Assembly: GCA_965200315.1 (NCBI GenBank)
Contig: OZ241362.1
Span: 1,440,001-1,504,000, forward strand
Source: Candidatus Latescibacterota bacterium
Lineage (GTDB): Bacteria > Latescibacterota > UBA2968 > UBA8231
Direction: 5' to 3'
Length of the DNA: 64,000 nucleotides
The notes under the pieces are model-generated. The model saw nothing but the letters and a program-made list of their open reading frames with translations. It had not been told where the DNA came from and ran no database searches. Every line of letters starts with the position of its first letter. Position 1 is the stretch's first letter. Position numbers and translations under genes: made by a program. Positions 4,356 through 49,396 of the stretch are shown here, one piece after another.

Positions 4356-7055
4356 TCAGCGGATCAAGGCCATCCGCCCCACCGCAGTAAAGGCTTCCCC
4401 GGCGGCGAGTCGGTACAGATAGACGCCACTGGCCGCCGGCCGCCCCTCGTCGTCGCGGCCGTTCCAAGAGGTGCGATACGAGCCGGCCGCCAGCGTCTCG
4501 CCACGGTGCAGGGCGCGGACGCGGCGGCCGAGCACGTCGTACACCACTAGATGCACAGGTACGGTCCTCGGCACGTCAAAGGCGATGGTTGCGTTGGCGT
4601 TGAATGGATTGGGCCAGTTCCCGCGCAACCGAAACGCCGCGGGCATTCCTGAGGCTTGCTCGGCAATCGCCGTCTGGACCTGATTCGGAGCTCCCGGCGT
4701 AGGGGTGCTTACCGTCTGAAAGTCGCCCGTAATGTCGGGGACGCGCGCCCAACTCGTTCCCTCATCGGCCTGTCCCTCTTCCCAGTCAATCTGAGCGACC
4801 AAAGTGCCATCGGCCGTCCAGATGCCCAGCTCCTCGTCGCGGCCAAGAGCAAAGCCGGGCCACCCGTCTTTATCGAGCTGAACCTGTAGAAACGCCCCCG
4901 CTGCGATGACTGTGCCGACCGGGAAGGGAGTGCGCTTACTCTCGTCCGTCAGGTCGTCGGCCATCACCAAGTCTGCAAGCTCTATCGGCTCATCCGCGGC
5001 ATTGTACAGTTCAAACCAGTCGAGGGGATCGCCTTGGGCCGCGACCTCGTTGATAATTAGTCTGATTTCTGCCCTAGTTTCTTCGTCGTCATCGCCTGAC
5101 GCCGCGTCCCCGCCGCCGCCAAAGCTGAGCAAGGTGCCGTAGAACCGCCCCGCAACTTTTGCGCCCGGTTTTGTGCTGGCCTCGCTGAATTCAATCCCTC
5201 CCTTGGCGATTAGGTCGAACTGCTCGGGATCACTAAAAGGCGATGGCAACACCACTCGGTAGCCGCTGACCGCATCCATGTCAATAGCCCAGCTAGCACC
5301 ACTCGCCACCCAGTCAATCGGCAGCGAAGCGGTGAGAATGTCGATAGCAGCGTCTTCTCCGAGGCTGACAATGGAGATGGACGCCACGTCTTCCGCAGCG
5401 CGTCCTTTGCCCTCTGCGCCCACCGCGTCCTCAAACTCGCCTTGGTCTATCGACCCGTCGCCATTGGCGTCAATGATCAGAATTTCGTCCCACGGCGGCA
5501 GGTCTTCGATGCCGAGTGCAATGGCCCCATCGTAGTCCTCTTTATCGAAAACGCCGTTGCCGTTGCCGTCGAGCGCGCCCAGTGTTTCATCCCAGCTTTC
5601 TCCTTCCTCGGCATCGCCCTTTTCAAGGCCGGCCGTAGCCCCTGAGTGTTCAAAGCGCAGCTCTTTTCCCCCGAACTCATAATGGGTGAACGAGACCGTT
5701 CCTTCCGCCAGCGGATTTTCGCTCCCGCTCGACCCCCATGTCGTCTCAAAGTGCAGCTCAAACGCGCCTCTTTCCGGCCAGCAAATGTCGGCTGAGGCCA
5801 GCGGCCAAGGCCAAGTGGGCGGCTCTGGATCGAGATCGGCTAAGATCACCGCACGCCGCGTACGGATGAACTGGCGCACCCGCTCGGCGTCGCGGGCAGC
5901 ATGGGTGCGCCTTTCTATTAGGATGTGCTGCTCGACGATCGCCGCCATCTCGTCGGCAAGGCCGAGCAGTTCTTCTTCGTTCCAGACCGCGTCGAGCAGT
6001 TGCTTGAGGCGGGCTACATAAGCCGTGCGCATCGCGTCCTCTTGGTACAAACGGTGGGCGATGGCCCCGTGTGCCATGACCGCCGGCGGCGACTCAAAGT
6101 CGTCGAAGGGGCCGTCGGTCGAGGTAAAAACCTGATCCGCGCCCCACGGTATGAACACAAATGGCGCATCCGGCGCTCGGTAGATGTAGAAGTTATTGCG
6201 GTTGCCAGCGTACCCATCCCAGTGGCCGATGAGCACTTCGACGGCCCAGAAGGTGAGGAAGCGGTCGAGGTCAATGGCCGCGGCGAGGGCTTCGAGCCCG
6301 GCCGGGGCGGAGTTTTGCAGCGCGTCGACGACCGCATCGATATCCGACCAATCCGCTTCTGCCTCGTTGGTTTTCTTCTGAAAGGTGCCGCGCCACTCGG
6401 GGCGGAAGTCGCTGACGGTCCCTTCGTAAGAATTGCCGCTCGAATCGGAAAAATTGCGCTCCAAAAAGGCGGTTTTCACGCTCTCGACGTGTACGTACAA
6501 GCCCAAGTTTTCGCCGTTTACCTCAACCGTGGCAAAGTTGCAGCGCGGTGCCGGCAGGCCGGCGGCGGCAAAGATGTGGTAGGCCATGCAGGTATTGATC
6601 ATGGACGGGTCTTGCTGGGCATTGTTCAGGGTCAGGCGCTTCATCGCGCCGCCGAGAAGCTGGCCGTCAATGAACTTGTCAAAGCGGACCTTGAGTGAGG
6701 GTTTGACCTTACTCAGCGATCCTAAAAACCCTTTCTTGCGGACGCCGATTTGGCTGTGGGTTTCGCCATCTACAGTTACGGTCGCCTCGAACCAAGTGAA
6801 AATTTCATCCGCGGGGCTGTCGAGGCAGTCGGCACCGCCGAGTATATCCGCCAAAGTCCGCGTCTGGGCACGCAGCCGGTCCCAATCCTCGGGTGCCATC
6901 TCAATGGCCACGTCGAGCACGCGGTCGAGGGCGAAGTAGGGGGCACTGGAATGGGGAGCGTCCGCCGGGGCTTGGCTCAACGCTGGGCCGGCGGCCAAGA
7001 GAAACGCCGCGATCGCGATACGTGCGGCCCTAAGTAAACTCTGGTGGTTTTTCAT
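4356..7055 (-). CDS. Secreted CotH-family kinase with EF-hand pair, lamin-tail domain and FlgD/T9SS-type C-terminal domain
   Basis: CotH motifs IGVRKKG, KPSLKVRFDKF, LTLNNAQQDPS, HWDGYAGNRNNFYIY, FIPWGAD; EF loops DGNGNGVFDKED and DANGDGSIDQGE; LTD IINEV..DWFELYN; CTD NWPNPFN..VYDVLGRRV..WNGRDDEG..ASGVYLYRL. Confidence 0.88.
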   Translation of the reverse strand: MKNHQSLLRAARIAIAAFLLAAGPALSQAPADAPHSSAPYFALDRVLDVAIEMAPEDWDRLRAQTRTLADILGGADCLDSPADEIFTWFEATVTVDGETHSQIGVRKKGFLGSLSKVKPSLKVRFDKFIDGQLLGGAMKRLTLNNAQQDPSMINTCMAYHIFAAAGLPAPRCNFATVEVNGENLGLYVHVESVKTAFLERNFSDSSGNSYEGTVSDFRPEWRGTFQKKTNEAEADWSDIDAVVDALQNSAPAGLEALAAAIDLDRFLTFWAVEVLIGHWDGYAGNRNNFYIYRAPDAPFVFIPWGADQVFTSTDGPFDDFESPPAVMAHGAIAHRLYQEDAMRTAYVARLKQLLDAVWNEEELLGLADEMAAIVEQHILIERRTHAARDAERVRQFIRTRRAVILADLDPEPPTWPWPLASADICWPERGAFELHFETTWGSSGSENPLAEGTVSFTHYEFGGKELRFEHSGATAGLEKGDAEEGESWDETLGALDGNGNGVFDKEDYDGAIALGIEDLPPWDEILIIDANGDGSIDQGEFEDAVGAEGKGRAAEDVASISIVSLGEDAAIDILTASLPIDWVASGASWAIDMDAVSGYRVVLPSPFSDPEQFDLIAKGGIEFSEASTKPGAKVAGRFYGTLLSFGGGGDAASGDDDEETRAEIRLIINEVAAQGDPLDWFELYNAADEPIELADLVMADDLTDESKRTPFPVGTVIAAGAFLQVQLDKDGWPGFALGRDEELGIWTADGTLVAQIDWEEGQADEGTSWARVPDITGDFQTVSTPTPGAPNQVQTAIAEQASGMPAAFRLRGNWPNPFNANATIAFDVPRTVPVHLVVYDVLGRRVRALHRGETLAAGSYRTSWNGRDDEGRPAASGVYLYRLAAGEAFTAVGRMALIR

Positions 7056-7276
7056 TGCGTTACTCTCCGTCTGCTTGAATAGGTGAAAATCCGCTTACTA
7101 CACGACACCAAGGGCACACCAGAAGACGCGCACACAGAGTAGGGGCGTGTCGCGTATCCCCTTCCACAGCGCACCGTATTTGAGGTGCTGTGGCGCGGCG
7201 ACTTAGACCAATCCCCGGATGTCATTGTCGCCATAGCCATCCTACAGGACTGGCGCAGCGGGATGGTGGGAAATCC

Positions 7277-9237
7277 TCAGCCGTGCAAGACCGGATGGCC
7301 ATTGCCGGGAAAGAACGCCACATCCACGAGGAAGGACAGGCCCACGCCGAGGAAGTAGCCCACAATCAGGCCGATGAAAAACGGCGCGGCCTTGCGGTAT
7401 AGCTCAATGCCGCCAAAGCGCATGATTAAGCTCTTGGCCGCCCAAGACACAAAAATCGCCGGGGCTTGATTGCGCACCATCCAAATAGCAGAGATCGCCA
7501 AGCCCACCGGGTGCAGGGGCCACCACGGGAACCGATACTGCATAAACGTCAAAACCGACATCGCCGCCGCGCCAATGCCGAAGAAGCCCAACTTTTGCGC
7601 GTGAAAATCGGCCGGGGCCTTTATCTTGGCCATCACATCGCCAAAGGCCATGACACCGGCACCCGAGGAGACGCGGAAGATCCAAGAGTTGAAGTTGGAA
7701 GCTCCCTGCTCGTAGGCCATAGCGATGAGGTTGGTCAGCGAAACCACAAAGGACAGCACCACCGCCAAGGCAATGGCCAAGACAAAGCCGCGGCGGGCAA
7801 TGCGCAGGCTGTGTTGCAGCTTTGCAGCGTGCGCGGCCGAGGGCATGAAGATGGACTGCACGTCGCCGAAAAAGGAATAGGTCAGCCCCAAGGCCGCCAA
7901 ACCCGTCGGCGAAATGGCACTAGTGCCCAGCGTCATCATGGTCATCGCCTGACTGACCACCGGCGTGGTCAAATAGAACACGCCCGCCTGGACCACTAGG
8001 CGCGTAATGCCCAAATAGGCGATGAGGACGCCGGCCAAAAAGAGCACGGCGACCAGCCACTCCATGCCGGCCTTGTGCAGCCAAGTTAGCATATAGACGA
8101 CCCCGACCAACAGGCCGACGACCGCGCTGCGATAGGACATCAACTCGCGGCGGTCGTCAACCGGGCAGGCTGGATTCCACGCCTTGCGGAACACATCCTT
8201 GAGGTGATCGCGCGCCATCCACAGCCCCCACAGCACCAGCACCACAAACGCCCCCAACACTGCCAAGACGTCGAAGGCAGTCCCCACACGAACTTATCCG
8301 CCTCGGTGACGCCGAGGCCAAAGCGATTGAACAAACCCTCCTCGAGCAGCGTCAGCAAGAAGAAGAACCAGATGCTGAAGGTCACATTGAGGTTGGCAAA
8401 ATACATGAAGCCAATGACCGGAAAGTAGAAGCGGATATTAATGGTCGGAAAGCCGTGCGCGATTTGGATGGGATGGTGCCACTCGATCTTGGGGAAAAAG
8501 TGAAAGAAAAAGCCGACGATATTCCACAAGACAATGCAAAGCGGAATGGCCGCACCGGCCCAGAAAACTTTGCTGTACATGACCACTGGCAGTCGGCGGG
8601 AGCTGTCGGCGTTGGTGACGAGGGCTTGGGGCACCTCCATCAGCGGGTAGGCCAACCGCTCGCGCTCGACCCATTGCTTGCGGAGGATGACCACCACACA
8701 GAAACAGACCAAGTACAAAGTCCATATAAAGCTCAGCCACCAAAACAGCGGCATGGCCCAAGCGGCTAGCAAGGTGAGCCAAGGGGTGGGTTCGCCGAGG
8801 GGTAGGCCCTCGAAAAACCAAGTCATGGCCAAGCCGTCGTTGGACGGCAGCAGCCAAGCGGGCAGGTAGGGCAGCACGTAGGTGCCCCATTGATTCTCCG
8901 CCGACGCAAAGTAATAAGGAGTCGTCGGTATGGCTAGGAAGTAGCCGCTGAGGAAAACCGGGATGCCCGTACAGACCAAACCCATGACGACGACCGCGAT
9001 CATCTCGGCCGGGCGCAAAGCCCAGTTTGAGTTGAAGGTCTTTAGCAGGGCATTGGTGAAGAGGAGGCAGACAAAGAGAAACCCCACCCCAATCGGAAAA
9101 AACGACCACGTCATCTCGGACGAGCCAAACGTCCAGATCGAGTGGGGTGCTCCCAAGCTGATCAGCAGCACCACGGCGCAGCCCACGAGCAAGGCGCGCA
9201 CACTAACGCCGGTACCCTCTTGCGCGGCCTCAGCCAT
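7277..9237 (-). pseudogene. DUF6785/DUF6784 polytopic membrane protein (OPT-like putative transporter), split by a 1-nt frameshift
   Basis: ORFs 8140..9237 and 7277..8287 together are colinear with the intact paralog 9230..11230; coding-strand G5 at 8251-8255 versus G6 at 10204-10209. Confidence 0.85.
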
Positions 9238-11230
9238 GCAGGACGGGGTGGCCGTTGCCGGGGAAGAAAATCATATCGACGATAAACGAGACCCCCACGC
9301 CGAAGAAGTGCCCGAGAATCAGGCCGATAAAAAACGGCGCGGCCTTGCGGTAGAGCTCGATGCCGCCAAAGCGCATGATTAAGCTCTTGGCCGCCCAAGA
9401 CACAAAAATCGCCGGGGCTTGATTGCGCACCATCCAAATAGCAGAGATCGCCAAGCCCACCGGGTGCAGAGGCCACCACGGAAACCGATACTGCATAAAC
9501 GTCAAAACCGACATCGCCGCCGCGCCAATGCCGAAGAAGCCCAACTTTTGCGCGTGAAAATCGGCCGGGGTTTTTATTTTACTCATTGCGTCTTCAAAGG
9601 AGCGGACGCCCGCGCCAGAAGAGACGCGGAAAAACCAAGAGTTGAAATTGGAAGCCCCCTGCTCGTAGGCCATGACAATGACGTACACAATGGCGGCGAT
9701 AAAGCCGACCAAGAGGGCCAGCGCAATGGCCAAGCACAAACCGCGCCGGCTCATGCGCATGGCGTCGTGCAGCCGGGCGGCATGCGCCGCCGACGGCATA
9801 AAAATCGACTGCACGTCGCTGAAGAACCCATAGCTCATCCCCAAGGCTGCCAAGCCCGTCGGCGAAATCGCACTGGTGCCAAAGGTCATCATGGTCATGG
9901 CTTGGCTGACCACGGGCGTCGTCAGGTAAAAGACGCCGGCCTGCACCACCAAGCGGGTGATGCCCAAGTAGGCAACGAGCACACCGCCCAAGAAAAACGC
10001 CGCCACCGATATTTCCATGCCGGCCTTGTTGAGCCACGCCAGCATATAGACAACCCCGACCAACAATCCGACGACCGCGCTGCGATAGGACATCAGCTCG
10101 CGGCTGTCGTCAACCGGGTGCGCGGGATTCCACGCCTTGCGGAACACATCTTTGAGGTGGTCGCGCGCCATCCACAGCCCCCACAGCACCAGCACCACAA
10201 ACGCCCCCCAACACTGCCAAGACGTCGATGGCAAGCCCCACACGAAGTTGTCGGCTTCGGTCACGCCAACGCCGAAGCGGTTAAACAGGCCCTCTTCGAC
10301 CAGCAGCAACAAATAGAAAAACCAGATGCTGAAGGTCACGTTGAGGTTGGCGAAATACATGAAGCCAACGACCGGGAAGTAGAAGCGGATGTTGATCGTG
10401 GGAAAGCCGTGCGCGATTTGGATGGGATGGTGCCATTCGATCTTGGGAAAAAAGTGAAAAAAAAAGCCGACGATGTTCCACAAGACAATGCACAGGGGGA
10501 TCGCCGCTCCCAGCCAAAAGACCTTGTTGCGCAAGACGGCCGGCACACGCGCCGGGCCGTCGGCGTCTGCCACCAGAGCTTGCGGCACCTCCATCAGCGG
10601 ATAGGCCAGCCGCTCGCGCTCGACCCACTGCTTGCGCAAGATGACGACGAGGCAAAAACAAACCGCGTACAAGGTCCAGATAAAGCTCAGCCACCAAAAC
10701 AGCGGCATGGCCCACGCATCGAGCAGCGTGCCCCAAGGCATCGGCTCACCTATGGGCAATCCCTCGAAGAACCACGTCATGGCCAAGCCGTCGTTGCTCG
10801 GCAGCAGCCACGCTGGCAGGTAGGGCAATACGTACGTGCCCCACTGGTTTTCAGCCGAGGCAAAGTAATAGGGAGTGGTGGGAATAGACAGCACGTAGCC
10901 CATCATAAAGATGGGGATGCCGGTCGTCACCAAGCCCATTACTACAACCGTGATCATCTCGGCCGGCCGCAAGGCCCAGCCGGGGTTGATCGTCTTGAGC
11001 AGAATGTTGAGCAGGATGAGACAGCAGAACGAGAAGCCGACGGCAATCGGAAAGAACGACCACGTGATCTCGGACGACCCCAAGACCCAGATGGCATAGG
11101 GTGCTCCCAAACACACCACGAGGACTTGGATGACGCCGAGCGCCAAGGAGCGGAGCGTGAGGCCGCTGGCCGCACCTTGGCGCGTATGCTCTTGCCGATA
11201 TGTAGGGGCCGCAGTCGGCGACGTCATCAA
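9230..11230 (-). CDS. DUF6785/DUF6784 polytopic membrane protein (putative peptide/solute transporter)
   Basis: 666 aa, many TM helices; family motifs RKQWVERERLAYPL, FPWWPLHPVG, PFFIGLILG. Confidence 0.85.
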   Translation of the reverse strand: MMTSPTAAPTYRQEHTRQGAASGLTLRSLALGVIQVLVVCLGAPYAIWVLGSSEITWSFFPIAVGFSFCCLILLNILLKTINPGWALRPAEMITVVVMGLVTTGIPIFMMGYVLSIPTTPYYFASAENQWGTYVLPYLPAWLLPSNDGLAMTWFFEGLPIGEPMPWGTLLDAWAMPLFWWLSFIWTLYAVCFCLVVILRKQWVERERLAYPLMEVPQALVADADGPARVPAVLRNKVFWLGAAIPLCIVLWNIVGFFFHFFPKIEWHHPIQIAHGFPTINIRFYFPVVGFMYFANLNVTFSIWFFYLLLLVEEGLFNRFGVGVTEADNFVWGLPSTSWQCWGAFVVLVLWGLWMARDHLKDVFRKAWNPAHPVDDSRELMSYRSAVVGLLVGVVYMLAWLNKAGMEISVAAFFLGGVLVAYLGITRLVVQAGVFYLTTPVVSQAMTMMTFGTSAISPTGLAALGMSYGFFSDVQSIFMPSAAHAARLHDAMRMSRRGLCLAIALALLVGFIAAIVYVIVMAYEQGASNFNSWFFRVSSGAGVRSFEDAMSKIKTPADFHAQKLGFFGIGAAAMSVLTFMQYRFPWWPLHPVGLAISAIWMVRNQAPAIFVSWAAKSLIMRFGGIELYRKAAPFFIGLILGHFFGVGVSFIVDMIFFPGNGHPVLHG

Positions 11231-11359: not shown

Positions 11360-12970
11360 CTACCCTCCATCGTCTAGCCCGGCCGCGTGGCGGCCCGCAG
11401 CCGGATCGCCGGCCGCGTAGTACGTGCCCGCGTCGGCCCACAGCATGACCGGGGTGGCGATGGGGCCGTTGCGGGCCTCGACTTGGTGGCCGCGCCGCGC
11501 CAGTTCGTCGCGGACCTCGGCATCGACAGCCGAACTGATAGCCAGCGAGCCGGCCTCGATGAACGTCTGCTCGCGCACCGGATTGGGATCAAACGAGTCT
11601 TCGTGGTGGTCCGTGGCAAAGCGCGGCGCAACGACCGCTTCGGCTGGCCGCATCCCAAACTCCACAAAGTCGAGCAACAGATTCAAGGCCGCTTGGTCTT
11701 GCAGGTCGCCGCCGGCCACGCTAATGGCCAACACGGGCGCACCGTCTTTGAGTACCATCGTGGGCGTCAGGGTGATGCGAGGGCGCTTGCCCGGCGCGAT
11801 GCAGTTGGGGTGTCCGGGGGTTGTGTTGAGGCTGCGCAGGCGGTTGCCATAGGAGACGCCCGTGCTGCCGGTGCCGCCAGCGTGATAGACATTCGCGCTC
11901 GGCGTAGCCGATACGACCATGCCCCAGCGGTCGGCCACTACGCACGTGGTGGTGCCGCCGACGCCGGGCCGGAACGCGCCGCCCTCCTGCAGTGCCCTCC
12001 TACCGAGCGGGTCGCCGGGGCGGGCATCCAGCGAGGCTTGCCCCATGTCGATCAGGGGCCGCCGGAGCTGGGTATATTCGTCGGACAGCAAGGCGTTCAT
12101 GGGCACATCCACGAACAGGGGGTCTCCGTAGTACGCATCGCGGTCGGCCATGGCCAGCTTCATCGCTTCGGTGACCGCGTGGACGTAGTCGGCCGAGCAA
12201 TGCCCCATGCTTTTGAGATCAAACCCTTCGAGCAGGCGCAAAGCTTGGCACAGATAGGGGCCTTGGGTCCACGGGCCGCACTTGTACACTTGGTAGCCCC
12301 GGTAATCGACTGCCACCGGCTCCTCGATCAAAGTCCTATGGGCGGCCAGATCCGCACGGCGCAAGAACCCGCCCTGCTCCACGTAGAACGCCTCCAAGTC
12401 TGCGGCTATATCGCCGTGCTCGGCGCGGCGGCCATAGAAGTGATCGCAAGCCGCTTGCAGCTTCTCTTGGCGATTGCCGGTGGCGCGATGTTCCTCCTCC
12501 ACCATGCGCCGCAGCGTCCGCGCCAAGTCGGGGTGCCACGCCTCCTCTCCTTGGTCGAGCAGGGCCAAGGTCGGCGCGACAATCGCGGCAAAGCTCTGCG
12601 TGCCGTATTGCTGCAAAAGGGTAATGCACAAATCCACGACCGAGGGCACCGGGGCCATCTTGATGTCGTGGTCGGGGATGCCGTGCTCCATGTACCAAGC
12701 ACTAGCCTCCGGCGACAGCGGCGCACGCCCCTGGCCGGACAGCGACTTGACCGCGTTTCCGTCCCATATAAGCACCGGCACTTCCCCGCCGATGGAGCAG
12801 GCCCCGTGATCGGTGACGTTGAGCGCAAAAATTGCGCCGGCGGCCGCATCGGCCGCATTGCCACCCGCGCCGAGGATTTCTATACCAGCGGCTACAGCAC
12901 CAGCACCACCAGCCGCAATGACGCCGGTTTTGCTCTGGGTCTGCCAGCCGATCTGATCTGATCTACTCAT
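11360..12970 (-). CDS. ggt: Gamma-glutamyltransferase family Ntn-hydrolase
   Basis: GGNAADAAA, EAMKLAMADRDAYYGDP, catalytic Thr in GGTTTCVVAD, PGKRPRITLTP; start reassigned to ATG 12970 (AAGGAG RBS). Confidence 0.9.
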   Translation of the reverse strand: MSRSDQIGWQTQSKTGVIAAGGAGAVAAGIEILGAGGNAADAAAGAIFALNVTDHGACSIGGEVPVLIWDGNAVKSLSGQGRAPLSPEASAWYMEHGIPDHDIKMAPVPSVVDLCITLLQQYGTQSFAAIVAPTLALLDQGEEAWHPDLARTLRRMVEEEHRATGNRQEKLQAACDHFYGRRAEHGDIAADLEAFYVEQGGFLRRADLAAHRTLIEEPVAVDYRGYQVYKCGPWTQGPYLCQALRLLEGFDLKSMGHCSADYVHAVTEAMKLAMADRDAYYGDPLFVDVPMNALLSDEYTQLRRPLIDMGQASLDARPGDPLGRRALQEGGAFRPGVGGTTTCVVADRWGMVVSATPSANVYHAGGTGSTGVSYGNRLRSLNTTPGHPNCIAPGKRPRITLTPTMVLKDGAPVLAISVAGGDLQDQAALNLLLDFVEFGMRPAEAVVAPRFATDHHEDSFDPNPVREQTFIEAGSLAISSAVDAEVRDELARRGHQVEARNGPIATPVMLWADAGTYYAAGDPAAGRHAAGLDDGG

Positions 12971-13063
12971 GTGTTGCTCCTTGTCGAAAAGAAAATTTGC
13001 CGCGTTTAATATCGCTTGGTGGGGGTGGTCTGTCGAGAATATTTCGGTGGAACCATCCTCAGC

Positions 13064-13400
13064 ATGAGATTCTTGGCGGACATGGGAATCTCTCCGAGTA
13101 CCACCGCGTACCTTATTGTAGAACAGGGACACGATGCCACGCACTTAGCTGCTCAAGGGCTACATCGGTTGCCTGATCCACAAATTTTAGCCAAGGCTCG
13201 CCATGAGCAGCGCATACTTCGCACGCACGACCTAGACTTTGGGGAACTAATTACCCAGCGTCCTTATTTTTCGCCTACGCCACATGCAGCCGGCCCACGT
13301 CAACAGCTAAATCATCTCAGTCTATCACAAACAACTTGAAGATGGCTGTGTCATAAGCGTCACAGAGGGCCAAATCCGCACTCGCCAACTTCCGCTATAG
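13064..13400 (+). pseudogene. DUF5615 PIN-like toxin, disrupted
   Basis: MRFLADMGISP..GHDATH..LPDPQIL..RILRTHDLDFGEL; the C-terminus (FRLRHMQP..QLEDGCVISVTEGQIRTRQLPL) continues in another frame with an internal stop; no antitoxin adjacent. Confidence 0.7.
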
Positions 13401-13454
13401 AAGCAAAAAGCCGAGCATATTGCCCTACTCAGCGAGTCGTTGAATCAGGGCGAT

Positions 13455-13991
13455 TCACTGTATCAATCGGTCGACTTGATCTAAAATTGCATCGGGCGTC
13501 GGCCGGTCGGAAATGCTTTTCCCTACGTATCTCCATTCGATGTCGCCCTCGGGCGAAACGAGGACGGCGGCCGGCGTCGCAAGGCCGTCATGCAGCAGGT
13601 TGTAAACCCCGTAGTCCTTAGCTACCTCGGCGTTCTCGTCTGACAGAATGGCAAATTCAGCGCCGGTGAGCTCCACCATTTTCAGCGCGTCGGCCATGCC
13701 ATCCGTGCTGATCGCCGCAAGCGACACATTGCGCTTTAGAAACTCGGGATACACATCTGCCAACTCACCTAGTTGGCTCCGACAGGAACCTCAGAAGAAT
13801 CCTCTGTAAAACAGCAGTACCGCGGCCGCGCGATTGTCGAGTAAATCGGCCAAGGAAACAGAAGTCCCATCCTCCGCAGGTAAGGTGAACGCCGGCGCTC
13901 GACTGCCCGAGGAGACGGCATTGGAGTTGCAGCCGACCAAGGAGATGAGAGTCGCGATTGCCCAGGCCAGAAGCACGACCCTATGGTGCAT
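13455..13991 (-). CDS. Selenocysteine-containing AhpC/TSA (peroxiredoxin-like) lipoprotein, UxxC motif
   Basis: ATG 13991 (GGAGAG RBS), lipobox LVG-C, APAFTL..LLFYRGFF-TGA(13791-13793)-GSCRSQLGELAD..AISTD..LSD..VAKDYGV..; both track ORFs are in the same frame; SECIS-like hairpin right after the UGA. Confidence 0.88.
13759..13777 (-). promoter_or_regulatory. Putative bacterial SECIS element
   Basis: mRNA UGA-GGUUCCUGUCGGA-GCCAACU-AGGUG-AGUUGGC: perfect 7-bp stem with a G-containing loop starting 20 nt after the UGA. Confidence 0.75.
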
Positions 13992-13999
13992 TTTCTCTC

Positions 14000-14821
14000 C
14001 TACTCGGCGAGCCGCCCAAGCGGCTTGCGCGGGCCGACCAAGATCATCCGCCCCCACGTGTTGTCGTCGTCGCCATTGCCGTAGATCATAAAGTGCCCGC
14101 CGTACGCGCCGCCGTCTGGGTCGGTGTGGACGATTTCCATGCTGTATTCGTCGCCCACTTGCGGCGGCTGCCAGCGGGGGTCGCTCTGGGCAAACGTCGC
14201 GTGCATATCCACGCGAGCCTCCAAGATGAAATCGGCCGCGCTCCGGCCCCAAGGATCCATGCGCACGACGTAGTCGCAAGCGGCTTCGGGGATCGGCTCT
14301 TCAATGTAGCTCTGGCCGGGCGCACCGTGCCGCCACCAAGCGTTTTGCGGGGTGCGCTGCGGATCGGCGACAAAGCAGAAGGCGTTGTCGCCTTGGCCGA
14401 AGCGCTCGTTGGCTCGGTCGCGCGGGCCTTCCATGAACCAGCAAATCGCATCCTTGAAATACCAGCGCTTGTCCGCCGGATTGGGGTCGTCGAGGTCGTT
14501 GACATTGTCGAGCACCTCGGCCCCGAAGTAGAAGTTTTGTGCGTCCCAAGCAATGTAGTAGCGGGCACTCAAATCCTCGGCGAGCGACGGCTCGTCGCCG
14601 TGGTCGGTGAGGCGGTTGCGCGCACCGCGATCGAGGCGATAGAAGCTGGCCTCGCTGATGCGGCGCATGTCCCAGACGCCGTCGTTGTGGGCGCGGTCCT
14701 TCCACTCGGAAAGGTCGCCGTCAATGGTCGGGGCCGCTTCCAGCAAGGGAACGTTGATGTTCACGTCCGCACGTGAGACGGAGGCCGCGAGCAAAATCGC
14801 GCACATCGCAAAAGGCAGCAT
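14000..14821 (-). CDS. Secreted CBM9/DOMON-like sugar-binding protein
   Basis: Signal peptide; APTIDGDLSEW, YYIAWDAQNFYFGAEVLD, IVHTDPD; start reassigned to ATG 14821 (GAGGAG RBS). Confidence 0.72.
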   Translation of the reverse strand: MLPFAMCAILLAASVSRADVNINVPLLEAAPTIDGDLSEWKDRAHNDGVWDMRRISEASFYRLDRGARNRLTDHGDEPSLAEDLSARYYIAWDAQNFYFGAEVLDNVNDLDDPNPADKRWYFKDAICWFMEGPRDRANERFGQGDNAFCFVADPQRTPQNAWWRHGAPGQSYIEEPIPEAACDYVVRMDPWGRSAADFILEARVDMHATFAQSDPRWQPPQVGDEYSMEIVHTDPDGGAYGGHFMIYGNGDDDNTWGRMILVGPRKPLGRLAE

Positions 14822-14832
14822 ACATTTTCTCC

Positions 14833-15579
14833 TCAGCGGTAGTCTTCGGCTCGGTCCGCGGGCACAAAGCCCACCGTCTGGCGAGCGTGGTCTAGGTCGC
14901 GGTAGCCCCATTGGTTGTCCGAGTTGACGAAGAAGGTGTCGAAGGGCAAGTCGAGGGGGGCGGCAAGGCACTTTTCGATCATCTGCACTGCGTCGCGCTG
15001 GCTGCACCAGACGCAGTACTCGCGGGAATGGGTCGGGTGGTTTTCCGGGTTGACGCGGCCAAAACGCAGGCAGAGGACGGACATGCCGTGGGCCGCGGCG
15101 TACTCGCGGCCCAGCTCTTCGCCCCAGACCTTGCTGGCCGCGTACAGGCCCGTGGGCCGCAAGGGCGATTGCGCGGTCAGCATCGGCCACTCGGCGGGCA
15201 CTTGGTCGTACTCGCCGGCCAGAAGCTCCTTGTATGGCGAGAGCGCGGCATAGCCCCCCATGACCGATCCACTGCTGGCAAAGAGAACGCGCCGCACCCC
15301 GGCCTCGCGGGCCGCGGCGAAAACATTCCCGGCACCCTGCAAGTTGGCGCGGAAAATCGCTGCCATATCGTTGTCAATCTGGGCGGCGAGATGGACGACC
15401 GCGTCGATCCCGGCAAAGACCGGCCGGATGGCGTCGAGTTCGGCGATGTCGGCTTGGTGGCAGTCGATGTGCGGCAGCGGGCGGCGGTTGAGGGCGCGCA
15501 AATTATAGCGGGTGCGCAGGCTGGCGACCGCGGCCGTGCCGATCAGACCTGTGGCACCTGTGATGAGGACGTTTTGCAT
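14833..15579 (-). CDS. NAD-dependent epimerase/dehydratase (uronate dehydrogenase-like)
   Basis: VLITGATGLIG, VVHLAA, FASS, YAASK. Confidence 0.85.
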   Translation of the reverse strand: MQNVLITGATGLIGTAAVASLRTRYNLRALNRRPLPHIDCHQADIAELDAIRPVFAGIDAVVHLAAQIDNDMAAIFRANLQGAGNVFAAAREAGVRRVLFASSGSVMGGYAALSPYKELLAGEYDQVPAEWPMLTAQSPLRPTGLYAASKVWGEELGREYAAAHGMSVLCLRFGRVNPENHPTHSREYCVWCSQRDAVQMIEKCLAAPLDLPFDTFFVNSDNQWGYRDLDHARQTVGFVPADRAEDYR

Positions 15580-15649
15580 AAGCCTATTGGGGGGTGAATG
15601 TTGGCTCTCATTAGTAAGTAACTGAATGGTAAGCACGGCCCCTAGGTAT

Positions 15650-29133: not shown

Positions 29134-30750
29134 ATGATCGAAGGACAACAAGTAATCGCCGATGGCGGTGCTGTAGCCGCTCAGCAGCCCGCCGCAGCGC
29201 GCATTGGCGCGCAGATATTGACCCAAGGCGGCAACGCCATGGATGCGGCCGCGGCCACTAGTCTGGCCTGCTGCATGTTGGCGCCCCAATCCAACGGCAT
29301 CGGCGGGTACATGTCGGCGGCGGTTGTTTTGGAAGGTTCCACCGGCCGCGTCTGGTCGCTCGACGCCAATGCCAAAGCCCCGGCCGCGGCCCACGGGCAG
29401 ATGTACGACATTCTGCCCGTCCGCCGCGACAACATGGGCACCAACGAAAGGGAATACGCCTGTAGCGTCCGCGACGATGCCAACGTGTACGGCCCCCAGT
29501 CCATAGCCGTCCCCGGCCAAATGGCTGGCATGGGCTTTTTGCACGAGCGCTGGGGGCAATTGCCTTGGGCCGCGATTGTCGCCCCGGCCCAAGGGCTCCT
29601 CGCCGATGGCTTCCCTTACGGCCCAGCCCTAGCCAGTACCATCCGCAACCAAGAAGCCATTCTGCGCCGCTTCCCCGCCACGTTTAGCCACCTCGCGCCG
29701 CAGGGCGCGTTGCCCAGCCCCGACGACATTTGGCATCGTCCCGCTATGGAGCGCACCCTAGAGAGTCTGGCCCAAGCCGGCTGGCGCGACTTTTACGATG
29801 GCGAATTGGGCCGCACCATTGGCGATTATGTCCAAGCCAGCGGCGGTGCGCTCACCCGCGATGATATGGCCGCCTTTGCGCCGCGCCTGACCGAGCCGTA
29901 CCAAATCACCTACCGCGACGTGCCGGTATACGGGCCGATTTTGCCCAACGGCTGCCTCTCTGCCCTCCAGATTTTGCACATGCTGGAGTGCCTGCCCGTG
30001 GTGCCCGACGACCAAGCCCGGTACTGGCACCAGCTAGCCGAGGTCGTCAAACAGGCCTGGCGCGACCGCCTGCGCTACGTCGGCGACCCGGATTTCGTGG
30101 ATGTGCCGGTAGAGCGCTTGTTGAGCAAAGACTACGCAGCCGGTCGCGTCGAGAGCCTGCGGCAATTCCCCGCTCAGGTCGATCAGCAGGTGTACGAAGC
30201 TTCGGGTCCAGCTATCGCCGAAACTTTGCACGTATCGGCCGCGGACGCCACCGGCAATCTCGTCGGCATTACCATCACCCAGGGCGGGGCTTTTGGCTCC
30301 TGTTTCACGGTGCCGGGTACGGGCATTATTCTGGGGCACGGCATGTGCCGTTTGGACCCCCGGCCCGGTCGGGCCAATTCCGTGGCCGCGCACAAGCGTC
30401 CGCTCAACAACGTGGTCCCCATGATCTTGCGCCTGCCCCAGCGCGACGTGGCCATCGGCCTACCCGGCGGTCGCCGCATCATCAGCGTCGGTGCCCAATT
30501 AGGGCAGCGCATTATCGACTTCCACGCCACGGCCTTGGGAGCAGCTACGGCCCCCCGGCTCAACGCCGAAGCCCAAGAGCCCCTCGAACTGAAGCGCGGC
30601 ATCGATCCGGCGATTGTGGAAACCCTAAAAGAAATGGGCCACCGGGTGCTGGTAAGAGACGAGGTGGCCGGCGGCGCGCACGGTGCCGAAGTGCTCAAAA
30701 GCGAGGGCAAGGTGCGCGCCGGGGGCAATGGCTGGGCCGCGGGCGTATAG
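29134..30750 (+). CDS. ggt: Gamma-glutamyltransferase family Ntn-hydrolase
   Basis: GGNAMDAAAA, NGIGG, AWRDRLRYVGDPDF, catalytic Thr in ETLHVSAAD, KRPLNN, GLPGGRRI. Confidence 0.9.
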   Translation: MIEGQQVIADGGAVAAQQPAAARIGAQILTQGGNAMDAAAATSLACCMLAPQSNGIGGYMSAAVVLEGSTGRVWSLDANAKAPAAAHGQMYDILPVRRDNMGTNEREYACSVRDDANVYGPQSIAVPGQMAGMGFLHERWGQLPWAAIVAPAQGLLADGFPYGPALASTIRNQEAILRRFPATFSHLAPQGALPSPDDIWHRPAMERTLESLAQAGWRDFYDGELGRTIGDYVQASGGALTRDDMAAFAPRLTEPYQITYRDVPVYGPILPNGCLSALQILHMLECLPVVPDDQARYWHQLAEVVKQAWRDRLRYVGDPDFVDVPVERLLSKDYAAGRVESLRQFPAQVDQQVYEASGPAIAETLHVSAADATGNLVGITITQGGAFGSCFTVPGTGIILGHGMCRLDPRPGRANSVAAHKRPLNNVVPMILRLPQRDVAIGLPGGRRIISVGAQLGQRIIDFHATALGAATAPRLNAEAQEPLELKRGIDPAIVETLKEMGHRVLVRDEVAGGAHGAEVLKSEGKVRAGGNGWAAGV

Positions 30751-34782: not shown

Positions 34783-35715
34783 ATGGAAGCAATCAAGATG
34801 GAACCCAGCCCGCCGATTGAGGTCCCCAAGCCGCTCTCCGCCGCCCAAGTGCAGTCCTTTATCGACGACGGCTATCTCGTGGTACCGGGCCTGATGCAAG
34901 AAGCCGAGCTCGACGAGCTCAAACGCGACCTCGTAGATGTGGCGCGCGGCCGCTACGAGTGCAATACCATCGAGCCGGTCGATCCCACCCTGAGCGATCA
35001 AGCGGTGCTAGAGAGCATCCTTTGCATCCACCAGCCGCACTACGTCAGTCCGGTCATCGAACAGTACGTCCGCCATCCCAGAATCTGCGGCGTCCTGAGC
35101 CAGATCGCGGCCGCGCACCTGCCCTTTTGGGACGGCAGCGTCAAGTGCATGCAGTCCATGTATTTCGTCAAGCCGCCCAACTTTCAAGGGCAGGCTTGGC
35201 ACCAAGACGAGATCTACATCCCCACGCGAGATCGCTCGCTGATCGGCGCGTGGATCGCCGTGGATGACGCCACCGTAGAAAACGGCTGCCTGTACGTCAT
35301 TCCGGGGTCGCACCGGCCTGGGTACCTCTACCCGCAGCGGCCCCACGAAAACCCAGACGAGTTCGACTTCGCGCCCGAGAGCTACGGATTTGACGAGCGC
35401 GTCGAGATCCCGGTTGAAGTGGAAGCCGGTGCCCTCGTGTTCTTCAACGGCTATCTCCTCCACCGCTCGTACAAAAATCGGGGCAACACCTATCGCCGCG
35501 TCTTGGTCAACCACTACTGCAACGCCTATAGCCTGTTGCCTTGGAGCATCGAAGAAGGCGAATCGCCCGCCCGCGCCGACCGGCGCACCATCGTGCCCGT
35601 GGCCGGCATCGATCCCTACGCTTGGAAGGGCTATCAAGCGCCGGCCAAGTCCGTGGGGTTGCGGCACTCCAAGGCCATCGACGAGGTCCGCGCCACCCGC
35701 GAGGAGCACGCTTGA
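34783..35715 (+). CDS. Phytanoyl-CoA dioxygenase (PhyH) family Fe/2OG dioxygenase
   Basis: WHQD, AWIAVDDATVENGCL..IPGSH, LLHRS..N..R. Confidence 0.9.
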   Translation: MEAIKMEPSPPIEVPKPLSAAQVQSFIDDGYLVVPGLMQEAELDELKRDLVDVARGRYECNTIEPVDPTLSDQAVLESILCIHQPHYVSPVIEQYVRHPRICGVLSQIAAAHLPFWDGSVKCMQSMYFVKPPNFQGQAWHQDEIYIPTRDRSLIGAWIAVDDATVENGCLYVIPGSHRPGYLYPQRPHENPDEFDFAPESYGFDERVEIPVEVEAGALVFFNGYLLHRSYKNRGNTYRRVLVNHYCNAYSLLPWSIEEGESPARADRRTIVPVAGIDPYAWKGYQAPAKSVGLRHSKAIDEVRATREEHA

Positions 35716-35945: not shown

Positions 35946-36009
35946 TATAGCAGTCCTACGTTATTCGTGCGATGCGGCGCATCGCTGGGTGCGCGGGCGT
36001 CTCGCCCGC
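35946..36009 (+). mobile_element. MITE-like end plus REP, second copy
   Basis: TATAGCAGTCCTACGTTATTCGTGCGATGCGGCGCATCGCTGGGTGCGCGGGCGTCTCGCCCGC. Confidence 0.7.
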
Positions 36010-36036
36010 GGGCAGGCCAGCGGCACCAAGTCGATA

Positions 36037-36575
36037 TGACCAGCTTGGCCAACTCGGTCCCCGGGCTGATCAGCTATTGGGTGCCGCTGGTGTCGAGTCC
36101 GTTTTATTACGCCAGCTCGGAAAACAACTGGGACGAACTGATCCTGCCCTATCTCCCTACCTCGCTGGTGCCCCACGACCTAGCGGCCATTCGCGCTTTT
36201 TTTGAAGGCAACGAAGGGCAGGCGAGTGCGATTCCTTGGAAAGTGTGGCTGACGCCGCTGTTGAGCTGGTTGCCGCTGATCGTCGCGCTGCACGTGGCCA
36301 CCTTGTGCCTGATGGTTGTCGTGCGCCGGCACTGGGTCTGGTGGCCCTTGCATCCGATTGGCTTTCCCATCAGCTCGACCTTTCACTGGATGGCTTTCAA
36401 CGCCTTTTTGGCCTGGCTCATCAAGGGGCCAGTCCTGTACTACGGCGGCGTCCATCTCTACCGCCAAGTGCGGCCGTTCTTCTTGGGGATGATCCTCGGG
36501 CACTTTGCGATCTTCGGGGTCTTCTGGGTCATCGACTCCTTCACGGGCATGATCGGCAACGGTCTGTTCCTCTGA
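36037..36575 (+). pseudogene. DUF6785/DUF6784 protein, 5'-truncated with a large in-frame internal deletion
   Basis: PFYYASSENNW..FFEG..VVVRRHWV joined directly to WWPLHPIG..PFFLGMILG; about 390 aa of the paralog 9230..11230 missing between them. Confidence 0.8.
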
Positions 36576-47749: not shown

Positions 47750-48565
47750 TTAAACCGAACGATTATCTGGCGAATAGGCGCGGTTATCACCGCCTATTTG
47801 CCACGTGCCGCGAAACAAAGAGCGGCGCTTGGGCGGCATGGCCTCGATGACCTCGTGGCTGAGGTTGAGCCGATGCCATTGGGCCCACAGAGAATTGTAG
47901 CAATTGAAAACGGCACAGCGCGGATTGTCCGAGTTGCGCCAATCGTTGGCTGCATGTAGCAGGCTTTCGGTGAAGACAATAGCCGAGCCGGGCGGGCAGC
48001 TATATTGGGCCATGGCCGCCTTCATGGGTTCCTCCCAAGGAGATTCGCCGATATTGGGCCGGTTGGGGTCGGGGCCGCCGTAGTTGAAATGGGCCTTGTG
48101 AGAGCCGGAGAGAAACGTGGTGCCCCCTTGGCCGGCTTTCACTTCTTCAAGCTCCCACACCACCCGTGTCAGCCCGGAAAATATCTTGTTGCCGGCCACT
48201 TGGTAGCGCATGGCATTGGCTTGTTGCGGGGGCCTCACTACATGCGGCAGGCCCGTGCCGTTGCTGGTGCTTTTCCAGCCGACCTGCCGCACGGTGGTAA
48301 AGGAATTTTCGCAGCGGAAGCTGTAGTACTCGTCCCCAAGATACGGCTCTTCAGCGAGGATTTCAGTGAGAATGCCAACCACCGCTGGATGGTCCAAAAG
48401 TTCCTGCAAGGCACCTTGGTAGCCTTGTTTGGCACCGCCGTATACTTCGGCCTTCGTCGCTTCAATTTCCGCCTCGGACAGCACCGAGGGCAACAAGAGC
48501 CAACCTTGGAGGTCGAAAAAAAACTTCTGCTCTGCGGTCATGGGCGCGGCATTGTGCTCGCTCAT
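47750..48565 (-). CDS. PhyH family dioxygenase (divergent)
   Basis: KFFFDLQGWL, GGTTFLSGSHK, FTESLLH; first iron motif atypical (LPHVV). Confidence 0.8.
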   Translation of the reverse strand: MSEHNAAPMTAEQKFFFDLQGWLLLPSVLSEAEIEATKAEVYGGAKQGYQGALQELLDHPAVVGILTEILAEEPYLGDEYYSFRCENSFTTVRQVGWKSTSNGTGLPHVVRPPQQANAMRYQVAGNKIFSGLTRVVWELEEVKAGQGGTTFLSGSHKAHFNYGGPDPNRPNIGESPWEEPMKAAMAQYSCPPGSAIVFTESLLHAANDWRNSDNPRCAVFNCYNSLWAQWHRLNLSHEVIEAMPPKRRSLFRGTWQIGGDNRAYSPDNRSV

Positions 48566-48586: not shown

Positions 48587-49396
48587 TTACACCTGTTTAG
48601 TCCACTCAATCGGCTCGCGGGCGATGCCCTGTTCCCGGGCCCATTCGGCCAAGCCGTTGCTCGATCCCCCCAATAGCTGCTTGCCAAGATCATCTACTTG
48701 GCTCAGCACCTCGTCGCCCGGTTGGACGAGGTTCATATTATCCCGCAGCCCTCCCATCCAGCGGTAGCTGTAGCCCAGTATGACCACCTTTGATGTGCGC
48801 TGGCTTAAATTAGGTGCCGCTGTGTGGAAGACGCGGTTCTCAAACAAAAAGGCATCACCGGCATTGAGACACAAATCCACCGCCTTCTCTGGATCGACTT
48901 GGCCTTGAGGGATGGGCAACGGCGTCGGCAGCCGATGCGATCCGGGGGCGAACATGGTAAAACCCGACTGCGGCGTGGGAAAATCCGTCAGGCAATAGCC
49001 CACTTTTATGCCGGCGCGGACGATGCCTTCGTGGCCCAAATCTTCGGTCATGCCGATGTCGCGATGCCATCCCCGCACCCCTTCCCCGGCATCGTCCTGT
49101 GGGAATTTATAGATAATCGCCGTGGTGTGCAGATGGATGTTGGGCGACAGCAACTGGACCAATAGCGGCACTGTCGAGGAATGGGTCAGCAGCGGGTGAA
49201 ACGCCTGCTCTTGTACGATACCCGGCCGCCGCTGAACATAGTATTGGTCTGCTTGGCGTCCGAATTCATCGATCATCCGGTCGCACACTGTCGTCAACTG
49301 CTCCACTTCGCGCTGCGTCAGTGCCCTTGGGACGACCAGATAGCCGTTGTCGTCAAAGAAGCGACGCTGTTGCTCCTCCAGTAGGACCAATTCCAT
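48587..49396 (-). CDS. PhyH family dioxygenase
   Basis: FDDNGYLV, WHRD, APGSH, FENRVFH. Confidence 0.9.
   Translation of the reverse strand: MELVLLEEQQRRFFDDNGYLVVPRALTQREVEQLTTVCDRMIDEFGRQADQYYVQRRPGIVQEQAFHPLLTHSSTVPLLVQLLSPNIHLHTTAIIYKFPQDDAGEGVRGWHRDIGMTEDLGHEGIVRAGIKVGYCLTDFPTPQSGFTMFAPGSHRLPTPLPIPQGQVDPEKAVDLCLNAGDAFLFENRVFHTAAPNLSQRTSKVVILGYSYRWMGGLRDNMNLVQPGDEVLSQVDDLGKQLLGGSSNGLAEWAREQGIAREPIEWTKQV

Follow-up and report, generated by a model that had tools for sequence, protein, structure and literature searches.

Gene Structure and Features of the Locus

The window analyzed here is a 64,000-nucleotide (nt) stretch of contig OZ241362.1 from a Candidatus Latescibacterota bacterium, and the gene under study, hereafter the redoxin gene, lies on its minus strand. 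Between positions 13991 and 13455, translation with TGA read as selenocysteine (Sec, U) gives a single frame of 178 codons followed by a terminal TGA, with one in-frame TGA inside it. The frame opens with an ATG at 13991-13989 and closes at 13457-13455, while the internal TGA occupies 13793-13791 and corresponds to codon 67. The list of open reading frames (ORFs) made with translation table 11 cuts the gene into two same-frame ORFs at codon 67, and the coordinates of this split, which a sequence-only reading of the same DNA had pointed out, were confirmed. The full translation reads MHHRVVLLAWAIATLISLVGC...LLFYRGFF-U-GS-C-RSQLGE..., in which the N-terminal part MHHRVVLLAWAIATLISLVGC ends in the lipobox L-V-G-C. 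We consider that 13991-13455 is a genuine gene for a small exported redox protein, and that its internal TGA most likely encodes Sec. The features of the gene are as follows.

13455-13991, minus strand: probable complete selenoprotein gene encoding an AhpC/TSA-fold redoxin lipoprotein (translation with TGA as U, Pfam, AlphaFold2 (AF2) model)
13791-13793, minus strand: in-frame UGA, codon 67, the proposed Sec codon and U of a UxxC motif (conserved in the related loci L001-L004; Cys in homologues)
13782-13784, minus strand: TGT codon of Cys70, the second redox residue (aligns with the peroxidatic Cys of peroxiredoxins, PDB 2cx3; nearly invariant)
13759-13777, minus strand: hairpin resembling a Sec insertion sequence (SECIS), with a 7-bp stem and the loop AGGUG (sequence, energy, pairing in five genomes, and published rules for bacterial elements)
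13929-13991, minus strand: signal peptide with lipobox L-V-G-C, Cys21 (13931-13929) being the predicted lipidation site (by rule)
13997-14001, minus strand: Shine-Dalgarno-like AGGAG, 6 nt before the ATG and overlapping the stop of the upstream ORF (read from the sequence)
13410-13433, minus strand: terminator-like hairpin with a U-run, starting 21 nt past the gene stop (consensus scan)

Conservation of the Reading Frame across the UGA

Two Pfam domains cross codon 67. AhpC-TSA (PF00578) matched residues 29-153 with an E-value of 8.3e-28 (97.3 bits against a gathering cut-off of 26), and Redoxin (PF08534) matched with 7.8e-21 (74.9 bits against 26.6). A scan of genome contigs with the redoxin sequence revealed seven loci, four of which (L001-L004) are close to the window gene, with 82-84% amino acid and 87-89% nucleotide identity and no indels. 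In each of them, codon 67 is likewise TGA and the N-terminal part stays in frame, and no further stops or frameshifts occur in the redoxin gene across the five genomes.

A 5.8-billion-protein collection yielded 94 matches, including 92 close relatives and two distant proteins. Among the close relatives, 89 are C-terminal pieces of 99-112 residues whose first residue maps to positions 68-80, and the other three (P0091-P0093) are N-terminal pieces whose last residues, ...FYRGFF, end at residue 66. The only full-length matches are the two distant ones (33-34% identity); an uninterrupted form was found in none of the 92 close relatives in this collection, all of them being cut at codon 67 down to 73% identity. 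More distant fragment clusters, with 39-59% identity, begin at the same place as the close stubs.

Pairwise ratios of nonsynonymous to synonymous substitution (dN/dS, Nei-Gojobori) were 0.07-0.30 in codons 22-66 and 0.10-0.36 in codons 13-66, against 0.19-0.51 in codons 68-178; constraint on the portion 5' of the TGA is no weaker than that on the 3' portion. Ratios well below 1 in both halves indicate that these are translated in the same frame. The in-frame UGA is conserved among the orthologues and flanked by coding selection, as in bacterial selenoprotein genes, and genes of this well-known kind are routinely cut in two by gene finders. The conserved TGA, the breaks at codon 67, and the dN/dS ratios together do not fit a pseudogene or two independent small genes.

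It is highly probable that the locus encodes a 178-residue single-gene selenoprotein, in which UGA67 is decoded via the SECIS-like hairpin to give an exported UxxC redoxin. The central claim of the sequence-only reading, namely one gene with UGA67 as Sec in an AhpC/TSA-fold lipoprotein and a SECIS-like hairpin, was supported by every test that was run.

The SECIS-Like Hairpin Downstream of the UGA

On the minus strand, GCCAACU (13777-13771), AGGUG (13770-13766), and AGUUGGC (13765-13759) form a hairpin that begins 13 nt past the UGA, inside the coding sequence, and places its loop 20 nt past the UGA. The stem, loop, and distance are exactly those first noticed from the sequence. Taken alone, the hairpin folds at -10.3 kcal/mol with seven perfect pairs and a 5-nt loop. 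According to the bacterial SECIS (bSECIS) rules, as outlined in the review PMC13188914, the apical loop has 3-9 nt, the stem has 4-16 bp, the loop lies 16-37 nt from the UGA, a G stands in loop position 1 or 2, usually followed by G or U, and the minimum free energy (MFE) is at most -7.5 kcal/mol. The hairpin falls within all four constraints of that outline, with its loop G at position 2 followed by another G, which agrees with the earlier proposal of a bacterial SECIS lying directly 3' of the UGA (4/4 rules). Most elements in the bSECIS model have an N1-N2 loop pair, whereas the flanking loop bases A and G of this hairpin cannot form one. It also has no bulged U of the kind present in E. coli fdhF.

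Across the five genomes, pairing is retained in 35 of 35 cells, and the sole change turns the closing G-C pair into G-U in L003. None of the 13 third codon positions in the 39 nt after the UGA varies, compared with 54 of 152 elsewhere (one-sided Fisher p=0.0045), and the 13-codon stretch of the gene with the lowest number of such changes starts at codons 67-70. This minimum points to an RNA constraint beyond that on the protein. A perfect Watson-Crick hairpin of at least 7 bp was found 5-20 nt downstream of 1208 of 127880 positions in the window (0.94%) and of 7 of its 1590 UGA triplets; with a chance rate of about 1 in 100 for the hairpin alone, the weight rests on the comparative evidence.

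Several observations count against this hairpin as the functional element. The five sequences are close relatives (87-92% nucleotide identity), so that conservation of the hairpin is weak evidence for structure, and no compensatory changes were found in them, six of the seven pairs being invariant. A 66-nt segment was no more stable than its shuffles (z = -0.29; 70 of 200 folded at least as well), MFE folds of 60-66 nt preferred a competing stem, GGUUCC/GGAGCC, and the pair probability of the hairpin in a 250-nt context was just 0.06-0.07. Rfam gave no matches at gathering thresholds over the window, and a scan of 13650-13850 at E<=10 returned one chance match to a long non-coding RNA and no bacterial SECIS family. 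The shuffle and pair-probability results mean that thermodynamics alone does not single out the hairpin.

The competing stem GGUUCC/GGAGCC (13778-13790 with 13775-13777, minus strand) lies directly after the UGA, and it and the 7-bp hairpin cannot form at the same time. Sec might thus be inserted while the 7-bp hairpin is not the SECIS or only part of it, the competing stem or a larger structure being functional. The MFE folds would favor this arrangement, and the competing stem is itself paired in 29 of 30 cells, neither stem showing covariation; however, its loop, just 6 nt past the UGA, is too near for the 16-37 nt rule, and one of its pairs is broken in L003, where the 7-bp hairpin remains fully paired. 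We regard such an arrangement as unlikely and keep the 7-bp hairpin as the candidate SECIS.

Identity of the Residue Encoded by UGA67

The TGA was said to fall exactly at the first Cys of a redox CxxC (FYRGFF-U-GS-C-RSQL), and both the motif and the position were verified. An exhaustive HMMER search of 1.84 billion representative sequences gave 6532 matches, of which the best 150, together with P0094 and P0095, were aligned to the query, resulting in 177 domain rows, 146 of them covering the motif. At columns 67/70, these 146 rows have C/C in 124 cases, S/C in 10, W/C in two, C/S in two, T/C in one, and other combinations in seven. Cys is present at the UGA column in 129 of the 146 motif-covering rows, and the more distant locus L005 has the codon TGC there (...FYRGFFCGQC...). 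The consensus of a 64-sequence alignment is VVLVFYRGxWCPxCRxQL. The remaining 31 rows fall short of the motif; most are proteins of about 100 residues starting at query positions 72-92, a cut that matches the one in the close clade.

Of the true stops in the window, TGA occurs most often; it terminates 23 of 51 ORFs, including the redoxin gene itself, which indicates that it is not reassigned in this organism. For example, the ORF for EPSP synthase ends in TGA, and its Pfam match runs to profile position 417 of 417.

It is quite improbable that suppressor or near-cognate decoding inserts one of the standard amino acids (Trp, Cys, or Gly) at UGA67. In favor of such readthrough, and against Sec, Pfam scans detected no selA, selB, or selD among the 51 ORFs of the 64-kb window, ARAGORN found no tRNA there, and thus no tRNA-Sec, and two distant lipoprotein homologues, P0103 and P0107, have W at the Sec column (...GHFWGIC...). 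On the other hand, TGA serves as the commonest stop and no code change is apparent, Cys predominates at what is the nucleophile position of the CxxC, and a hairpin in line with the bSECIS rules stands at the canonical distance. Trp at the Sec column had been named beforehand as a refuting sign; it occurs in only 2 of the 146 rows, one of which stands beside truncated forms in a FastTree phylogeny, where P0103 is sister to a fragment with a support of 93. This grouping is consistent with TGA printed as W by a gene call under table 4, which would be the simplest reading of the W in P0103 and P0107. We infer that the organism has Sec machinery, as the sequence-only reading proposed. No second selenoprotein gene was found in the window, since none of its eight TGA-extended ORFs, translated with TGA as U, has a Pfam domain spanning the TGA.

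The phylogeny, built on 90 columns, is poorly resolved (18 of 131 branches starred). The five rows nearest to the query are all fragments, and 20 of the 23 fragments fall in one 46-row subtree, which also contains 20 CxxC forms. None of 500 shuffles clustered the fragment label as strongly as the tree does.

In two further homologues, P0116 and P0166, a C-terminal redoxin piece is joined through a linker to a second N-terminal piece, which ends in ...VFYRGFW. This layout suggests tandem relatives with two putative Sec residues, as gene callers would show them. P0096 has two domains and two CxxC motifs.

We also considered two separate polypeptides, namely a lipoprotein stub of 66 residues and a fragment of 99-102 residues whose translation begins at an internal GTG or TTG. 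Gene callers give just these pieces, and purifying selection acts on both of them. However, the break falls at the active-site residue, in the middle of a thioredoxin (Trx)-fold domain that AF2 models as one unit; the C-terminal piece would be left without a signal peptide, unable to reach the N-terminal piece once that is exported; and the homologues are single chains with Cys at the break, making separate products very improbable. A pseudogene with an inherited nonsense mutation is scarcely credible, for although a recent shared mutation is conceivable among five genomes that are 87-92% identical, these genomes show no other stops or frameshifts, dN/dS stays far below 1 both before and after the TGA, and the 92/92 clusters down to 73% identity, like the fragments at 39-59%, all break at codon 67.

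Predicted Fold, Active Site, and Export

The AF2 model, based on the 64-sequence alignment, has a peroxiredoxin fold with a pLDDT of 93.9 and a pTM of 0.85. In this model, a strand at residues 56-61 leads to U67, and a helix (68-79) begins right after it. The nearest PDB folds are Bcp4 (3hjp; TM-score of 0.79 for the query, TMq, and 0.89 for the target, TMt), AhpE (1xxu), and PrxQ (4gqf/2cx3), with TMt ranging from 0.79 to 0.91. The closest solved sequence is the BCP of A. pernix (2cx3, E 1.7e-15), in which FFPAAFSPVC is aligned by HMMER opposite FYRGFFUGSC. Accordingly, C70 corresponds to the peroxidatic Cys of this BCP, U67 to Ser, R63 to Pro, and P140 to the Arg of ...AKRAVFIV, which we take to be the catalytic Arg. 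The 64-sequence alignment shows next to no variation at R63, C67, C70, and P140. The canonical peroxiredoxin site (PxxxT/SxxC and a conserved Arg) is absent from the redoxin, and the R63/U67/C70/P140 pattern indicates a peroxiredoxin fold with a thioredoxin-type redox pair rather than a canonical peroxiredoxin.

In NCBIfam, the selenoprotein models SelL_rel_redox (NF040769, 51.6 against a cut-off of 120), PrxU (NF040737, 38.9 against 270), and WAxxUGC_long (NF041054, 27.9 against 300) scored below their cut-offs, as did the BCP and ResA models. NF041046 (UGSC) was not among the matches at E<=0.001, although it shares the tetrapeptide.

The lipobox L18-V19-G20-C21 follows a hydrophobic stretch and fits, by rule, the lipoprotein pattern [LVI][ASTVI][GAS]C. 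The N-terminal LVG-C noted earlier was found as described, and its Cys is kept in all eight close sequences (the window gene, L001-L004, and the fragments P0091-P0093). Export and lipidation are judged by rule only, and one observation counts against them: the sole in-frame start in the relatives is a GTG overlapping the preceding stop (TAGTG), which leaves them a short signal peptide without a positively charged n-region.

Based on these features, the following pathway may be proposed. During translation, UGA67 would be decoded as selenocysteine, and, by analogy with known bacterial systems, the AGGUG-loop hairpin would recruit SelB and Sec-tRNA(Sec). The lipoprotein precursor, as its lipobox suggests, would be exported and cleaved before Cys21, leaving the mature protein lipid-anchored at the outer face of the cytoplasmic membrane or in the periplasm. 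The mature domain adopts a BCP/AhpE-like peroxiredoxin fold with a Trx-type U67-x-x-C70 at the N-terminus of helix 68-79, Sec taking the peroxiredoxin Thr/Ser position and Cys70 the peroxidatic Cys position. Its most likely role is that of a thiol/selenol-disulfide oxidoreductase and not of a canonical peroxiredoxin, with the protein probably cycling via a U67-C70 selenenylsulfide with Sec as the attacking nucleophile, and peroxide-reducing activity may be retained. Pfam scans of the window ORFs detected no DsbD/CcdA-type reductant gene nearby.

Comparison with Known Redox Selenoproteins

Selenoproteins of the AhpC/TSA fold have been described previously. In its list of families, the review PMC13188914 presents "Prx-like thiol:disulfide oxidoreductase" selenoproteins as "predicted with high confidence", and the same list includes Redoxin-family (PF08534) UxxC and cd02970 UxxS selenoproteins. 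For "Prx-like 1", the Global Ocean Sampling data in Table 2 of PMC2398784 give 225 Sec sequences versus 2,740 Cys homologues. Prx-like 1 (PF00578, UxxC) and the redoxin are alike in Pfam family, in UxxC, and in that Cys homologues outnumber Sec forms; the redoxin clade, set against Prx-like 1 by description, differs in its FYRGFF-UGSC motif and lipobox. Another AhpC/TSA-fold selenoprotein is PrxU (NF040737), in which Sec replaces the peroxidatic Cys (TxxU, as stated in PMC13188914), whereas the Sec of the redoxin lies three residues earlier, at the Thr position.

BCP/PrxQ and AhpE (2cx3, 3hjp, 1xxu) are the closest solved sequences and folds, with TMt of 0.88-0.89 for 3hjp and 1xxu. Unlike the redoxin, a lipoprotein with R63/U67/P140, they are cytoplasmic and have a Pro/Thr-Ser/Arg site. 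The Cys-type "FYRGxWCPxC" Prx-like proteins, presumably those described as CDD PRX_like2 (cd02970), resemble the redoxin in carrying CxxC on a peroxiredoxin fold without the Thr and Arg of peroxiredoxins; they share 26-44% identity with it and have Cys where it has Sec. The thiol-disulfide oxidoreductases ResA, TlpA, and DsbE likewise have a Trx fold and a CxxC with a basic residue after it, and they too are exported or anchored in the membrane; they match the redoxin with E-values of 1e-7 to 4e-14. However, their match in sequence and fold is weaker than that of the peroxiredoxins, and their motif is WxxWCxPC instead of FYRGFFUGSC.

Genomic Neighborhood

Two ORFs precede the redoxin gene on the same strand.

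14000-14821, minus strand: upstream ORF, weakly CBM9-like (Pfam CBM9_1 1.7e-4, below cut-off; no NCBIfam match)
14833-15636, minus strand: extended short-chain dehydrogenase/reductase (SDR) or NAD-dependent epimerase ORF, first gene of the apparent operon (Pfam Epimerase 4.5e-26)

On the minus strand, the order is the SDR/epimerase ORF (stop 14835-14833), 11 nt, the CBM9-like ORF (ATG 14821, stop 14002-14000), 8 nt, the redoxin gene, and the terminator-like hairpin (13433-13410). The gaps of 11 and 8 nt in this row, reported earlier, were verified. The first enzyme had been called uronate-dehydrogenase-like, which was not confirmed; its best NCBIfam match is an Azf-type glucose-6-phosphate dehydrogenase (2.1e-37, below cut-off). 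The unusual operon context that had been emphasized is not conserved. The flanks are 88-92% identical to L001, L003, and L004, and the junctions differ in each; the CBM9-like gene is missing from L004, the adjacency of CBM9-like and redoxin genes is specific to the window, and a Uma2 gene, missing from the window, stands between in the relatives. Because the neighborhood varies among relatives, the proposed co-transcription partners are a local accident. A functional link of the redoxin to the CBM9-like gene or to the downstream gamma-glutamyltranspeptidase was considered and rejected, since the neighborhood differs in every relative.

The putative Uma2-family endonuclease gene lies directly upstream of the redoxin gene in all three relatives for which flanks are available, L001 (3393-4004), L004 (3393-4004), and L003 (3453-4004), with Pfam E-values of 1e-39 to 1e-41, and its TAG stop overlaps the redoxin GTG start. 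Downstream, the gamma-glutamyltranspeptidase gene is 33 nt past the redoxin stop in L001. In the window, an insert of about 400 nt (13010-13441), missing from L001 and L004, separates the two genes; it holds a plus-strand stop-to-stop frame (13010-13339) matching DUF5615 (5.3e-16) and the terminator-like hairpin, and it looks like the remnant of a small toxin-antitoxin-type module. In L003, and in that relative only, a gene for an AAA_15/AAA_21 ATPase (OLD/Abi-like; 5291-7057, minus strand, locus coordinates) lies between the redoxin and gamma-glutamyltranspeptidase genes. The spot between redoxin and transpeptidase seems to collect small mobile or defense-type genes.

The window contains two gamma-glutamyltranspeptidase paralogues, at 11360-13144 (minus strand, Pfam 1.1e-86) and 29134-30750 (plus strand, 3.9e-105); at the likely start of the former, MSRSDQIGW, no signal peptide is evident. 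Two adjacent DUF6785 (+DUF6784) genes occupy 8140-11230 (minus strand), and a third, shortened copy of 202 residues at 35967-36575 (plus strand) joins DUF6785 positions 82-174 to DUF6784. Three PhyH-family dioxygenase genes (34783-35715, plus strand; 47750-48565 and 48587-49396, minus strand) lie among aldolase, GFO/IDH/MocA, and SDR genes, and this PhyH/aldolase/SDR neighborhood suggests a catabolic island. Finally, an 899-residue protein encoded at 4356-7055 (minus strand) combines CotH kinase (5e-47), lamin-tail, and FlgD Ig-like domains.

Distribution and Significance

The loci L001-L004 are labeled Latescibacterota (two, one of them a complete chromosome), Dehalococcoidia, and Gemmatimonadetes, and their DNA is 88-92% identical over several kb. 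At about 90% nucleotide identity, these labels cannot all hold; at least two are wrong, or contigs are mis-binned. Sec appears to be fixed in 92 of 92 close clusters of a lineage labeled mainly Latescibacterota, and no Cys form exceeds 44% identity. Our search of the literature on Latescibacterota with selenocysteine, selenoprotein, selD, and selenium found no report of Sec use; PMC8318568 mentions both terms, and in the passages concerned it merely lists a Latescibacteria bin.

The redoxin is an unannotated addition to the established PF00578 UxxC selenoproteins; it stands out by its lipoprotein anchor, by the apparent fixation of Sec across its clade, and in that no curated model captures it. 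With somewhat less than even confidence, we propose that the FYRGFF-UGSC lipoproteins form a distinct, uncurated subfamily of extracytoplasmic, membrane-anchored selenoproteins with lineage-wide Sec at the Thr position of a peroxiredoxin scaffold and the former peroxidatic Cys as resolving partner; if so, this subfamily would document, for Latescibacterota, both Sec use and a Sec enzyme exported by the lipoprotein route.

The redoxin gene leaves knowledge of the Sec insertion mechanism unchanged. Public annotations of the lineage carry only stubs of 99-102 residues, and the annotation of the whole clade should be corrected so that each locus is called as one selenoprotein gene. The lineage almost certainly decodes UGA as Sec. 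The protein is a new member of the Prx-like UxxC selenoproteins, anchored as a lipoprotein and probably facing the periplasm, and it offers a compact natural case of Sec versus Cys at the nucleophile position on a peroxiredoxin scaffold.

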